This document shows, piece after piece, positions 11,646 through 17,682 of a stretch of 32,000 nt of DNA. The DNA is from Limnoraphis robusta BA-68 BA1 (lineage in GTDB: Bacteria; Cyanobacteriota; Cyanobacteriia; Cyanobacteriales; Microcoleaceae), in the NCBI RefSeq assembly GCF_034932365.1, contig NZ_JAYGHR010000068.1, forward strand, positions 179-32,178, in the 5' to 3' direction. The notes under the pieces were generated by a model. The model was not told where the DNA came from and searched no databases. It saw nothing but the letters and a program-made list of their open reading frames with translations. The first letter of the stretch is position 1. Every line of letters begins with the position of its first letter. The position numbers were made by a program, and so were the translations under genes.

Positions 11646-12530
11646 TTAAGTCCTGGGGGGGACACATACCACACGAAACCCGATAGTGAAGTTGGCGCTG
11701 GCGGGGTTATTGATCCTGCGGAACGCGGAGCGGCAGCGGCTTGGATTGAGATCCGAGGAGCCGCCACGAAGGACTCTTGTGTTATATGCAATATATGTAG
11801 TTTTTTTATTTTCTGACAACCACGCACGACCATCATCGGGTGCGCCTTCATAATTGTCGTGGAAATTATCTTCGCACCATTCCCAAACGTTGCCGTGCAT
11901 ATCGCACAAGCCAAAGGGATTCGCCACTTGGAAGTAGCCAACCGGAGTAGTTTGTTCTCGATCTTCTCCTTTGGGGCCTCTGCCGTAGGAACCGCTATAG
12001 ACGGTTTTGCCGCCAAATTCTTGATCCGTTCCACAATAGTTGGCCAGATCTGTGGTGATGGTTTCTCCAAAGTGAAAGGGTGTTGTGGTTCCGGCGCGAC
12101 AGGCGTATTCCCACTGGGCTTCGCTGGGCAGGCGGTAATCTCTGCCCGTTTTTTGACTCAATCGGGCGCAAAATTCTTTGGCATCAAACCAGGAGACTTG
12201 CTCAACTGGGCGACTCCAACGGTCGTAATTTTCGTAGGCATCTTTGAAGCGGGAGGGGTCGGGCTTGAGATCCCGTTCAATCTTTTCAGTAGTTTCAACA
12301 ACGGCTTTCCACTGACCCTGGGTGATAGGATAACGCCCCATAAAAAATTCTGAAATGGTAACTTCGTGTTGACGGCCTTCATCTTCGGAGCGTTCCAACT
12401 CATCCTCAGTCGAACCCATGAGAAACCTTCCTGCGGGAATTTTCATCATTGCCAGTTCAACATTATTACCCAACATTTCGACATAAAACTGGGCTTGTCC
12501 CGTTTGCTTGCGAATTGTTATTTTTGCCAT
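11646..12530 (-). CDS. Stand-alone FGE-sulfatase / C-type-lectin-fold protein, DGR target 2
   Basis: ORF 11646..12548, with the ATG at 12528-12530. Motifs: RFLMGS, HEVTISEFFMGRYPITQGQW, RLPSEAQWEYACRAG, HGNVWEWC, and C-terminal RGGS...GFRVVCVPPRT. It is paralogous to the C-terminus of ORF 14749..17682. Confidence 0.85.
   Translation of the reverse strand: MAKITIRKQTGQAQFYVEMLGNNVELAMMKIPAGRFLMGSTEDELERSEDEGRQHEVTISEFFMGRYPITQGQWKAVVETTEKIERDLKPDPSRFKDAYENYDRWSRPVEQVSWFDAKEFCARLSQKTGRDYRLPSEAQWEYACRAGTTTPFHFGETITTDLANYCGTDQEFGGKTVYSGSYGRGPKGEDREQTTPVGYFQVANPFGLCDMHGNVWEWCEDNFHDNYEGAPDDGRAWLSENKKTTYIAYNTRVLRGGSSDLNPSRCRSAFRRINNPASANFTIGFRVVCVPPRT
11649..11768 (-). other. DGR variable region VR2
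   Basis: The last ~40 codons of target 2. It aligns colinearly with 14752-14871, with identical anchors (cacgaaaccc, gcggagcggcag, ggagccgccacg) and clustered substitutions between them. Confidence 0.75.
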
Positions 12531-12533
12531 TTT

Positions 12534-12754
12534 GAAGTCAGAAGTCAATTTTGAAGTCAGAAGTCAGAAGTCAGAAGTCAGAAGTTAAGAGTTAAGCTGT
12601 TACACATCTAAAATTACACGACACCCAACACCCGTTTGAAGTCAGAAGTCAGAAGTCAGAAGTCAGAAGTCAGAAGTCAGAAGTCAGAAGTCAGAAGTCA
12701 GAAGTTAAGAGTTAAGCTGTTACACATCTAAAATTACACGACACCCAACACCCG
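12534..12754. repeat. (AGAAGTC)n heptamer arrays within a 120-bp tandem duplication
   Basis: Heptamer tracts at 12534-12547, 12553-12585 and 12638-12705. The 54-bp unique part gaagttaagagttaagctgttacacatctaaaattacacgacacccaacacccg is identical at 12581-12634 and 12701-12754. The array starts 3 nt upstream of the target-2 ATG. Confidence 0.9.
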
Positions 12755-14661: not shown

Positions 14662-14748
14662 ATTTTTTAACTTGAACTAAACATCAATATCTCCTCAAAT
14701 TTTCGACTCGCCAAAGGCGAGCATCCCGGAGGGCAAGAGGGCAAAGGG

Positions 14749-17682
14749 CTAAGTCCTGGGGGGGACGCACACCACACGAAACCCGTTATAGTCGTCGACG
14801 TTGCCGGGGAAAGTGTCGATGCGGTACGCGGAGCGGCAGCTCCCTGGATTGTCGTTCCAGGAGCCGCCACGCCTAACCCTTGGGCGATCATCCTCTAAGG
14901 CGTTGATTAAAAAATCATTATCAAACCTTTGATAGAAACCGTCGCCATTTTTTTCGTCCCAGACCTGACCGTTGCGAGCGTTGCCTTCATAGTTATTATG
15001 CCAGGGGTCGGCACACCATTCCCAAACGTTCCCGTGCATATCGTACAGGCCAAAGGCATTGGCAACCTGAAAACTTCCTACGGGGGTGGTTTCATCTCGA
15101 TATTGTCCTTCTAGCCCCTCTCCGTAGGTGTAGTTGCCGTTATAATTCGCCAAGTCGGTTGTAATCGTTTCTCCAAAGTGAAAGGGGGTTGTGGTTCCGG
15201 CGCGGCAGGCATATTCCCATTCCGCCTCGCTGGGTAGCCGATAAACTTGTCCGGTGTACCGGGAGAGTCGGGCGCAAAATTCTACCGCATCGTACCAGGA
15301 GACACTTTCAACGGGTCGATTGTCCCCTTTGAACGTTGAAGGGTAGGGGTTGAGGTCGCGCTGGATTTTCGGCACGCTGGTGGCGATCGCTCTCCATTGG
15401 GCTTGGGTAACGGGATATTTTCCCATAAAAAACTCTGAAACGGTAACTTCGTGTTGGGGGCTTTCATCTTCGTGGCGTTCGGGTTCATTTTTTGGAGAAC
15501 CCATCAGAAATGTACCACCCGGAATTTGCACCATCTCCAATTCAACCCCATTGCAGTCTTCGGTAAAATATTGATTTTGTCGATCATCAAAGTGAATCCT
15601 TAAGCTAGGTTGAGAGTCCCACCGTTCTATGACTTGTCGGGCATTGTTTTTATTGACTGTTTCACCCAGAACCTCTGATAAAATTTTCCAAAGCTTTCTC
15701 CCGACACGAAGTAAAGAATTTCTAGAGTGGGGTGTTGATCCTGCTATTTCGTTATAGGTTTGATTGGCAAATGTTCCCTTTAAAATAAGCTGTTGAGGTT
15801 CATTCAAATGTTGTCCCGTTTTCTGAAAAACTTCCCCATCCAAAATTTTTATCAGATCCTCGGGGTTTGATGGAGTAGAGGGATTAACTTTTTCTATTCG
15901 CGCAACTTGGAATTTAAAGGGCTTTAGGTTAATCCCAGAAGGGGTGCTAGGCTCATCCTCAATCGATACAGTTGCAATTTTAAATTCAAGGGTTTGTAGA
16001 GGTGGAAAGTTTTCAATTGTATTACTCCTACTTTGATTGCGTAGTTCTTCGGCAAAAACCGCGTATTCTCTTCCCAAATTTTCTAAGACTTCTGCTGCGA
16101 CTTGAGCGAAGGGTAATAGTTTTTCCTGTTCTGACCCAGTTAAGTTTTTGTATTTTGATAGAAATGCAGGAAAGTCCTTAATTGATGAATCTAAATTTTC
16201 GGCGACATATCTCGATACTACATCTAACACCTCTTCAGTTTTTTCTAAATGAATCGCCCGATTGAGTAGTTTTCTAACCTTTGGTACAAAATCATACTGG
16301 GGAGGCTCATTGTTCTCTAAAACATTGGTTCGCCGGATCATTCCACTTAGAAATACTTCGGCTACATTAACAGGCGTTGATTGATTGGGCAAGAATATTT
16401 TTTGAATGAGATTAATGACAGGTAAACTCACGGGTGCTGCTGCCATTAATCCGGCTAATCGTTGTGCCGTAGGTGAAGCGGTTGCCAAAAACCGATCTAC
16501 TAGGTTTTCGGGTGATACTTTCTGGGGTTCATCGGTTTCTGCCGCTTCTATTTGTTCGCTTACGAAATCGAGATCCAGAACAAATCCCGGTGTTTCGGTA
16601 TTTCCACAACCTGCTATAACTTTTGCCCATTTTGCGAGTGACGAAGCCTCTAGAGTAACAACAGGCAACTTCAAGATTTGTCTTTCTTTAATGTCTTCTT
16701 CCTCTTTAATTTCTGCCCAGAGCGACGGCAACACTAAATCTGAGTTCGGTACGCCAGGGTTAAAGGCGCCCAATGGCAATTTGTAGCCGAAACCTAGCTG
16801 ACTGCTTTGCCATAATCTCTCCGGAAAAAGCTGCACGATAGCTGTGGGAACCTTTTGTGACCAATTTTGCAACCATCGGTAAATTGTTTTTTGCTTCCAG
16901 ATACCAGAGACACAATCACTGACAACTAAAATTAAACCTCGTCCATTACTGTGAATGAGTTCTCGATAGTGATGCTGACAGCGACTTTTTTGACCATCTT
17001 TCTTCCGTCTCGTTAGTTGTAATTGCTGAGTTTCTGTACTTGATAAATTCCACGCTCTGAGGGTGCGAAATGCTCCCTGATTCTCCAACAGTTTTTGGAA
17101 TTCATCAATGGTTTCTGTCCAAATAAATGAAGAACGAGATTCTTCAACGACTAATTCTAGATCCAGCCACCGTTCAGGTTCAGGTTGAGCCACAGGTAGC
17201 CAAATATTTTGTTCTACAATGCGGGTAACAGTGGCTTCAGCATCAAGAATTGTTCTCATTGTAGAAGGAACTTTCCGCATCAGGGGTCGCAAAGCTCTAC
17301 CGATGGACAGTTTATTTTGCAAAGCGGGAGCCGCTGGCGCTTGAAAGGGTGAACTTTCGGCGCCGGTTTCATTCTCTGATTTTCCTGGGGGGCTTGGATC
17401 TTGAGAATAAAGGTTGAAAGTTGATTCTGTCTGCGTTTGCTGTTTTTCTGAAGTAGACGGAGAACTTGAATTTGTCTTCGATGGGGGATTTTTTTGGCTC
17501 GAATTTTGTGAGTGATTGGGTTGTTCTTTCGGGATTTTAGGTTCTACAACACCCATTTGTAAAGCCAACCAAATTGCATCAATGATGTCTTCATCACTCA
17601 GTTCTAAACGTTCTATTAACCCACTCAGTTCTAAGTGAGAAAGTAAGCGTTCAATGGCACGATGACAAGAGAATTCATTCAT
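14749..17682 (-). CDS. Multidomain sensor: N-terminal helical domain, low-complexity linker, vWA-like core, and C-terminal FGE-sulfatase/CLec domain carrying VR1 (DGR target 1)
   Basis: 977 aa. vWA-like strands with a degenerate MIDAS motif (LELVVEESRSS, LILVVSDCVSGIWK). C-terminal motifs: GGTFLMGS, HEVTVSEFFMGKYPVTQAQW, RLPSEAEWEYACRAG, HGNVWEWC. The start overlaps the MoxR-like gene stop by 8 nt. Confidence 0.8.
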   Translation of the reverse strand: MNEFSCHRAIERLLSHLELSGLIERLELSDEDIIDAIWLALQMGVVEPKIPKEQPNHSQNSSQKNPPSKTNSSSPSTSEKQQTQTESTFNLYSQDPSPPGKSENETGAESSPFQAPAAPALQNKLSIGRALRPLMRKVPSTMRTILDAEATVTRIVEQNIWLPVAQPEPERWLDLELVVEESRSSFIWTETIDEFQKLLENQGAFRTLRAWNLSSTETQQLQLTRRKKDGQKSRCQHHYRELIHSNGRGLILVVSDCVSGIWKQKTIYRWLQNWSQKVPTAIVQLFPERLWQSSQLGFGYKLPLGAFNPGVPNSDLVLPSLWAEIKEEEDIKERQILKLPVVTLEASSLAKWAKVIAGCGNTETPGFVLDLDFVSEQIEAAETDEPQKVSPENLVDRFLATASPTAQRLAGLMAAAPVSLPVINLIQKIFLPNQSTPVNVAEVFLSGMIRRTNVLENNEPPQYDFVPKVRKLLNRAIHLEKTEEVLDVVSRYVAENLDSSIKDFPAFLSKYKNLTGSEQEKLLPFAQVAAEVLENLGREYAVFAEELRNQSRSNTIENFPPLQTLEFKIATVSIEDEPSTPSGINLKPFKFQVARIEKVNPSTPSNPEDLIKILDGEVFQKTGQHLNEPQQLILKGTFANQTYNEIAGSTPHSRNSLLRVGRKLWKILSEVLGETVNKNNARQVIERWDSQPSLRIHFDDRQNQYFTEDCNGVELEMVQIPGGTFLMGSPKNEPERHEDESPQHEVTVSEFFMGKYPVTQAQWRAIATSVPKIQRDLNPYPSTFKGDNRPVESVSWYDAVEFCARLSRYTGQVYRLPSEAEWEYACRAGTTTPFHFGETITTDLANYNGNYTYGEGLEGQYRDETTPVGSFQVANAFGLYDMHGNVWEWCADPWHNNYEGNARNGQVWDEKNGDGFYQRFDNDFLINALEDDRPRVRRGGSWNDNPGSCRSAYRIDTFPGNVDDYNGFRVVCVPPRT
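14752..14871 (-). other. DGR variable region VR1
   Basis: The last ~40 codons of ORF 14749..17682 (RGGSWNDNPGSCRSAYRIDTFPGNVDDYNGFRVVCVPPRT). See VR2 for the alignment. Confidence 0.75.

Follow-up and report, generated by a model that had tools for sequence, protein, structure and literature searches.

How can a diversity-generating retroelement (DGR) hold two diversified target genes and a reverse transcriptase (RT) gene when no template repeat (TR) is found beside them? The question is raised by a 32,000-nt stretch of the genome of Limnoraphis robusta BA-68 BA1 (hereafter the window), in which the target, avd and RT genes of a DGR all lie on the minus strand, in the order target 1, avd, RT, about 750 nt of repeats and target 2. 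A TR that lies near the RT and differs from a variable repeat (VR) almost only at adenines is absent from the window, and the locus is an incomplete, degenerate DGR. The answer favored here, to which we assign a probability of roughly 80%, is that a canonical cyanobacterial DGR lost its template by recombination with a cassette in which heptamer arrays flank an intervening-sequence protein (IVP) gene, whereupon mutagenesis would have stopped and both VRs would have been fixed. It builds on direct observations, namely the components of the element, the absence of a TR, the breakpoint, an orthologous TR and adenine-specific mismatches. The cassette would accordingly be a DGR that is probably switched off.

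The components are readily recognized. Target 1 (977 aa, 14749..17682) joins a SAV_2336-type N-terminal domain (NCBIfam SAV_2336_NTERM, 472 bits) to an FGE-sulfatase/C-type-lectin fold, which forms its C-terminal 256 residues (Pfam FGE-sulfatase, residues 716-971, E=4e-54) and carries the first repeat, VR1; the protein is colinear over its full length with homologues from related DGR loci. The 977-aa form is not among the called genes of the source record and the exact protein is not on record; its open reading frame (ORF; 14749-17682) is uninterrupted, and annotation as a pseudogene or with another start is possible. After a gap of 87 bp follows avd (14323..14661), which encodes the accessory four-helix-bundle protein of 112 aa (Pfam bAvd, E=3e-21) and scores 132.7 bits against the NCBIfam equivalog DivGenRetAVD (cut-off 80). 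The RT ORF (367 aa, 13210..14313) starts 9 bp further on; both gap sizes had already been given in an earlier reading made from the letters of the window (hereafter the sequence-only reading) and are confirmed. NCBIfam holds no DGR-specific RT model; the RT carries a Pfam RVT_1 domain with a YVDD motif, and 69 of 80 related RTs adjoin adenine-biased TR/VR pairs, which places it in the DGR lineage. Target 2 (294 aa, 11646..12530) is a stand-alone FGE-sulfatase/C-type-lectin protein (Pfam FGE-sulfatase, E=1e-52), whose ORF extends over 11646..12548, with the NCBI start at 12530; for the 300-aa BA-68 form, no exact protein is on record. The same window sequence is present, identically, in L. robusta Tam1 (contig JAYGHS010000098.1, GCA_034932045.1), and the two assemblies have in common both the fused 367-aa RT and an identical target-2 protein.

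VRs are found at the 3′ ends of both FGE-sulfatase-domain ORFs, VR1 at 14750..14871 in target 1 and VR2 at 11647..11768 in target 2, both on the minus strand. The final 123 nt of the two ORFs align without a gap from CGTGGCGGCTCC (14871 and 11768, respectively) to the stop codons, which bears out the colinear 3′ ends of about 120 nt described in the sequence-only reading. By blastn, the match covers 133 nt at 75.9% identity (E=3e-27), and DNA similarity between the target genes is restricted to these final ~130 nt. The repeats differ at 28 of the 123 positions, 22 of them at codon positions 1-2 and 6 at position 3; a recount of the 21-nt stretch 14785-14805 versus 11682-11702 gave exactly 9 differences, all 9 at codon positions 1-2, just as previously noted. 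Likewise, the anchors CACGAAACCC, GCGGAGCGGCAG and GGAGCCGCCACG each occur at the VR1 and VR2 sites only, whichever strand of the window is read. Both VRs terminate in GTCCCCCCCAGGACTTA, and short hairpins follow them at about 14707-14721 and 11630-11640, whose folding is no better than that of shuffled sequences (z about 0).

The template from which these repeats were written can be read in a close relative. The 90%-identity cluster of the RT has one other member, P0001 (354 aa, 99% identical), encoded on a 1,569-bp Logan contig from run SRR18474649 (L082), and among the annotated RTs of NCBI genomes there is no near-identical sibling. Over 1,356 nt, comprising avd and RT, L082 is 98.2% identical to the window at the nucleotide level. 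The exact Avd protein of the window is found only on the NCBI contig, which argues that L082 stems from another strain rather than from a paralogue in the same sample. In L082, a classic, AAC-rich TR (GTGGCGGCTCCTGGAACAACAATCCAAGGAACTGTCGCTCCGCGTACCGCAACAACAATAACCCCGGCAACGACAACAACAATAACGGGTTTCGTGTGGTGTGCGTCCCCCCCAG) starts 62 nt past the stop codon of the 354-aa RT, and it is solely on this orthologous contig that a TR next to the RT differs from the VRs in the adenine-biased manner. The 3′ end of this TR (the initiation-of-mutagenic-homing counterpart, IMH*) is cut off in L082. VR1 and this TR, aligned over 115 nt, disagree at 13 sites, of which 12 are TR adenines (Fisher p=2e-7); for VR2 the count is 22, with 14 at adenines and 8 elsewhere (p=6e-5). 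With 12/13 and 14/22 mismatches on TR adenines, both repeats are VRs that were copied from a template of this lineage, and the TR itself is not among them; the sequence comparison thus supports the earlier proposal that both window repeats derive from one TR. The TR stretch that had been predicted by placing adenine at every differing site (GAC AAC GAC AAC AAC AAT AAC) agrees with the L082 TR in 20 of 21 bases, the exception being the first codon, which is GGC there. That the VR1/VR2 differences lie at template adenines holds for 20 of 27 when judged against this TR, and fails for the other 7.

The non-adenine differences also tell the two repeats apart. The single one in VR1 is common to VR2 and is therefore attributable to TR divergence between strains. 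The 8 in VR2 comprise this common one, 5 private ones in the body of the repeat and 2 in its GC-rich 3′ end. Homing would reset non-adenine positions; since 7 of those in VR2 are private, this repeat has not been rewritten for a long time, and from its sequence it seems to have been frozen longer than VR1, its rewriting having probably ended before the TR was lost. The five private body substitutions are three G-to-C, one C-to-T and one C-to-G; private non-adenine changes in VR2 exceed the number predicted from strain divergence, with G-to-C in excess. Positive selection following the freeze may account for these changes, as may an earlier state of the template. More generally, two VRs compared with each other can substitute for a lost TR.

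The search for a TR spanned the 32-kb window and 5.5 kb past its end (37.5 kb in all). Within the window, blastn with a word size of 7 returned no third copy of the repeat, and a degenerate pattern, in which the variable sites were written as N and 3 mismatches at most were allowed, matched twice, at the two VRs, vs 0 matches in shuffled sequences. The TR of L082 together with its spacer had no match in the window or in the 5.5 kb beyond, and a copy of the excised segment of RT tail, spacer and TR was likewise not found in the 37.5 kb. The statement that the window holds no TR, made before on reading alone, has thus survived a check for an overlooked copy. Short VR-like matches downstream of target 2, at 11500-11545, had E values of 0.1-0.9 and were taken as chance. 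The VR/TR anchor pattern gave 0 matches in a genome-contig collection that includes neither the source genome nor its close kin, and a TR-specific 35-mer gave 0 matches in a metagenome scan. Across the window, L082, and two relatives with and without a TR (L044 and L021, respectively), Rfam models matched only tRNA-Leu.

Where the TR should lie is apparent from the 80 closest RT loci in species-representative genomes, in which a TR was called when at least 70% of its mismatches to a VR were adenine-biased. The window RT is 66-78% identical to these 80 cyanobacterial RTs, nearly all of which align just to residue 343. TR/VR pairs were detected in 69 of the 80 loci, with the TR downstream of the RT in 62 of the 69; the median distance from residue 343 is 72 nt, and 56 of these TRs lie within 300 nt. 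A TR downstream of the RT was visible, by eye or by blast, in 6 of the 11 loci in which none had been detected, which brings the loci with a TR at about 300 nt or less downstream of the RT to at least 62 of 80, and in 2 more the downstream flank (183 and 85 nt) was too short to judge. In total, 75 of the 80 loci (69 by mismatch bias and 6 visible) have a TR within about 1.4 kb of the RT, often followed by a second target of ~290 aa. As the TR of the relatives lies directly downstream of the RT, it is expected exactly where the window has its block of repeats and IVP sequence.

The breakpoint at this position can be placed to the nucleotide. Window and L082 cease to be homologous at nt 1356 of L082, which corresponds to RT codon 343 and to about position 13285 of the window; at the junction the window reads AAACTCAAT joined to TGAAGTCAGAAGTCA, as compared to AAACTCAATATTTGAATCC in L082, and a TGAA microhomology is possible at this left junction. 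The RT ORF is hence composed of a native part, codons 1-343 with the YVDD motif (13285..14313, minus strand; RVT_1; 99% identical to P0001), and a foreign tail of 24 codons (13210..13284, minus strand), which arises by read-through into a heptamer array and the IVP leader, where the native protein would end in ...FESYSFSRSQP. The window RT thereby lacks its last ~10 native codons: the L082 protein ends in ...LRNSIFESYSFSRSQP, where the window encodes a translated GAAGTCA heptamer array.

In minus-strand order, the breakpoint is followed by a heptamer array, the 5′ part of the IVP gene, a further array with a direct repeat, the 3′ part of the IVP gene, a tandem duplication and the ATG of target 2. 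The array at the left breakpoint, (GAAGTCA) x4.7 (13252..13284, minus strand), was detected with Tandem Repeats Finder and a repeat search. Translation in the IVP reading frame identified a 5′ fragment of 36 codons of a 23S-rRNA-IVP/four-helix-bundle gene (13113..13223, minus strand). The array, again as (GAAGTCA) x4.7, the IVP leader and IVP codons 1-11 recur in a 95-nt direct repeat (13021..13115, minus strand; other copy at 13191-13285, 97% identical). The 3′ fragment (12815..13018, minus strand) comprises 67 codons for helices 3-4 and matches TIGR02436 with 57.8 bits over model positions 44-109 of 109; it is annotated as PF05635 in the source record and gave a jackhmmer match of E=5e-32. 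A full-length match to TIGR02436 was not obtained, the N-terminal 36 codons being a separate piece, and the gene is a pseudogene. The tandem duplication, with a period of 120 nt (12534..12754, plus strand), abuts the start codon of target 2 and holds two further heptamer arrays (12534-12585 and 12638-12705), which are inverted with respect to those at 13082-13284. A unit of ~57 nt (GGGTGTTGGGTGTCGTGTAATTTTAGATGTGTAACAGCTTAACTCTTAAC, minus strand; 12590-12637 and 12710-12790) was duplicated along with the neighboring heptamer array. A fifth array of the GAAGTCA type lies directly downstream of target 2 (11600..11633, minus strand), and arrays of this type are confined to 11599-13284 within the window. 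By this comparison, ~430 nt, as estimated from the relatives, were replaced by about 750 nt between RT codon 343 and the start of target 2; the replaced stretch covers the last ~10 RT codons, the 62-nt spacer, a TR of roughly 120-130 nt and the spacer between TR and target 2.

These findings can be combined into the following scenario. The ancestral layout would have been target 1, avd, RT, TR and target 2, which is usual in this cyanobacterial DGR family, and in this intact state the complex of RT and Avd would have turned TR RNA into cDNA, misreading template adenines, with the cDNA overwriting the VRs of both targets. Recombination at heptamer arrays, possibly assisted by the TGAA microhomology, would then have exchanged the segment that starts at RT codon 344 and ends shortly ahead of the ATG of target 2 for heptamer arrays around an IVP gene, a gene that has since undergone duplication and breakage. 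As the locus offers no cis template, cDNA synthesis would have ceased, hence VR1 and VR2 would stay as they were last written, the RT with its foreign tail would no longer be used and no TR would act in trans. The sequence-only reading had left open whether the TR was deleted in a rearrangement downstream of the RT, leaving a frozen DGR, or lies elsewhere; because homology ends inside the RT and gives way to arrays and a broken IVP gene, deletion is favored, and this part of the earlier proposal is now well supported.

Several points weigh against this scenario. The search for a TR covered 37.5 kb, and a TR acting in trans or a second DGR could lie elsewhere in the genome; trans diversification of degenerate DGR loci is documented, as published for those of Thiohalocapsa (Doré et al., 2024; PMC10907252). 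The ORFs of avd and RT are intact and their divergence from L082 is mostly synonymous (13 synonymous and 5 nonsynonymous changes in RT codons 1-343; 4 and 1, respectively, in avd), which would fit either a recent loss of the TR or genes that are still used or under selection. Furthermore, the identity of VR2 in Tam1 and BA-68 BA1 is weak evidence for a freeze, as these are perhaps not independent strains. The first two of these points also speak for the main alternative, a cassette that is still active and draws on a trans-acting TR from another part of the genome, be it alone or together with another RT; VR1, having no private non-adenine change relative to the orthologous TR, agrees with it too, and in two genomes a TR-less relative of the locus is accompanied by a further, complete DGR (L079 in Aetokthonos and L034 in Anabaena minutissima). 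We nevertheless regard such a supply as unlikely, given that the TR lies at most ~1.4 kb from the RT in 75/80 related loci, mostly less than 300 nt downstream, that neither the 90% cluster nor the 120 best RT homologues include an RT from a different L. robusta locus, that the excised segment has no copy in the 37.5 kb searched, and that VR2, with its 7 private non-adenine differences, is clearly not being rewritten.

The missing TR could also be an artefact, if the contig had been mis-joined through the heptamer arrays and the real order were RT, TR and target 2. Short-read assemblies are classically mis-joined at repeats such as these arrays of 33-68 nt and the 95-nt direct repeat; however, the same fused 367-aa RT ORF is present in two assemblies (on contigs of 115,499 bp and, in BA-68 BA1, 121,528 bp), the junction lies inside unique RT sequence next to a first array of 33 nt, which is below typical read length, and the last 10 native RT codons are gone along with the TR, all of which makes a mis-join improbable. 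Even less credit, close to none, can be given to the view that the 3′ ends are ordinary paralogous gene ends, kept alike by selection or gene conversion. Both genes do belong to one FGE-sulfatase family, but at the DNA level they are alike over no more than the last ~130 nt, they are separated by avd and a DGR-type RT, and the differences cluster at the adenines of a TR that sits beside a 98%-identical RT, so that the L082 TR refutes this view. Loss of the template and a freeze of both VRs therefore remains our preferred account.

Similar losses have occurred among the relatives, as 3 of the 80 loci keep VR-like copies without a TR, namely those of Anabaena minutissima (L019), Aetokthonos hydrillicola (L021) and Nostoc CHAB 5715 (L030). 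In Anabaena minutissima FACHB-250 (contig16), the upstream VR is kept and no TR follows the RT; in Nostoc sp. CHAB 5715, the upstream VR is also kept and the RT end continues into palindromic sequence resembling miniature inverted-repeat transposable elements (MITEs). In A. hydrillicola CCALA 1050 (contig_2, 11097-11560), the first 18 nt of the TR are left, followed by (CAGTTAT) x4, an intact IVP gene of 120 aa, (TGATAAC) x4 and the conserved post-TR sequence. A more advanced stage is seen in Lyngbya aestuarii BL J, where the homologues of the two targets stand side by side and avd, RT and TR are all missing from between them. Its target-2 homologue is 82% identical, with a VR that has 15 adenine-site differences from the L082 TR, and the 2-kb region is identical in four samples (L085, 7560-8873; L084, L086 and L087). 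The heptamer GAAGTCAGAAGTCAG stands directly after the target-1 stop in L. aestuarii, and the VR-like ends lack the GTCCCCCCCAGG end. These VR-like ends are fossil VRs of a wholly lost DGR.

The recurrence of an IVP gene at the site of a lost TR invites a more general idea, i.e., that an IVP gene, encoding a four-helix bundle of the Avd superfamily, between inverted heptamer arrays forms a mobile element akin to an intervening sequence (IVS) that preferentially replaces the template-RNA genes of DGRs, which are transcribed and structured, and thus acts as a recurrent DGR silencer. IVS elements insert in 23S rRNA. In about 1.3 Mb around 81 DGR RTs only two IVP genes were found, both at the expected TR position, one in an Oscillatoriales and one in a Nostocales genome, with different heptamers. 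Against such targeting, the junctions differ, being located at RT codon 343 in the window and at TR nt 18 in the A. hydrillicola locus; among 80 IVP loci from metagenomes, the only one with a DGR RT as neighbor is a copy of the Aetokthonos locus (100% identical IVP), and no enrichment of heptamer arrays downstream of RT genes was seen (3 observed vs 1.8 expected). We consider a dedicated silencer of this kind very doubtful. Among 60 cyanobacterial IVP genes whose flanks were long enough, roughly half are accompanied, on one or both sides, by perfect tandem heptamer arrays at a distance of up to ~200 nt, and at the metagenome IVP loci (L089-L168, e.g., L139, 3927-4463) they are often inverted, giving an IVS-like stem-loop architecture. 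A literature search found no paper on an association of IVP genes with heptamer arrays.

Taken with its relatives, the locus falls into a decay series that leads from the intact state (the SRR18474649 population) via loss of the TR (L. robusta Tam1 and BA-68 BA1) to loss of avd, RT and TR (L. aestuarii). This series fits the published idea that the diversification machinery is given up after a useful sensor variant has reached fixation (Vallota-Eastman et al., 2020; PMC7517822). The locus offers a clean natural case of a DGR switch-off, with a nucleotide-resolved breakpoint and a near-identical intact allele for comparison. The understanding of the DGR mechanism is unchanged by it; on the practical side, DGR finders that require a TR/VR pair will miss such TR-less loci.

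The DGR closes a MoxR/VMAP conflict-system operon, in which a MoxR ATPase, a VMAP protein, effector/adaptor domains and a sensor are combined as in MoxR-VMAP ternary systems. It comprises an AAA_5/bpMoxR gene for a MoxR-type AAA ATPase (17675-18724), an EAD9-VMAP-M1-VMAP-C gene for the VMAP protein (18734-20089), a TCAD3-CHAT-EAD9 gene contributing effector/adaptor domains (20089-21633) and a Trypco2 gene (21649-22068). The vWA domain of the third component of ternary systems had no match in target 1, which carries SAV_2336_NTERM instead; vWA-less variants of VMAP ternary systems have been described (Doré et al., 2024; PMC10907252). Upstream of this operon lies a defense island (window 21649-31863, plus 1-10008 of L169) with the BREX genes brxL (23816-25264) and pglZ (25248-27470) and a further ORF of 1466 aa up to the window edge (1810 aa in the record); genes for one HNH and one LAGLIDADG protein lie past the window end. 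On the other side, a Tn7-like region spans 7244-11395: after a tRNA-Leu (7244-7325) come a Tn7-like left end, in which TCACAAATTAGTTTTCGTTTT sites are repeated (7574 and 7604), tnsB (7701-9509), tnsC/tniB (9588-10421), a short tniQ (10428-10925) and a 204-aa ORF of unassigned function. The sizes of the transposon genes are similar to those of type V-K CRISPR-associated transposons. An inverted copy of the Tn7-like end was not found in the window; the DGR/VMAP/BREX island may be cargo of the Tn7-like element.

The prototype DGR is that of Bordetella phage BPP-1, with the order avd-TR-brt and Mtd as the target. The window locus resembles it in having Avd and RT, a 3′ VR in a target with a C-type-lectin (CLec) fold followed by a GC-rich stretch, and adenine-specific differences between TR and VR. 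It differs in its two targets, in the context of a cellular conflict system and in the missing template, and in this cyanobacterial family the TR lies downstream of the RT. The IVP fragments resemble 23S rRNA intervening-sequence protein genes in matching TIGR02436/PF05635 and in lying between inverted repeats, as rRNA IVSs do; unlike these, the gene is located outside an rRNA gene, is in two pieces and has heptamer arrays as its inverted repeats. The gene order is the same as in the clade 5E cyanobacterial DGRs, which diversify CLec/FGE-fold sensors of MoxR-VMAP conflict systems and run from Trypco2, CHAT-TCAD3-EAD9, EAD9-VMAP and MoxR to the CLec-VR target, avd, RT and a second, small CLec target, whereas the window lacks the TR and the last ~10 native RT codons of these systems (Vallota-Eastman et al., 2020, PMC7517822; Doré et al., 2024, PMC10907252). 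Membership of the window RT in clade 5E (PMC10907252) is putative. In Nostocales, remnant TR-VR homology and a degraded DGR cassette have been reported, along with the proposal that diversification components are removed after variant fixation (Vallota-Eastman et al., 2020; PMC7517822). A parallel in kind comes from Thiohalocapsa PB-PSB1, in which MITE-like repeat arrays have taken the place of the TR in DGR 7 and of the RT in DGR 4/5 (Doré et al., 2024; PMC10907252). As there, a key DGR part in a VMAP/MoxR locus was swapped for arrays of short repeats and the VR targets were kept, but the Thiohalocapsa repeats are MITEs derived from insertion sequences and its targets are still diversified in trans (PMC10907252), whereas the repeats of the window are 7-nt tandem arrays that flank an IVP gene. 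DGR decay with replacement of the TR by repeat arrays has been published before, and this locus is a further, well-resolved case.

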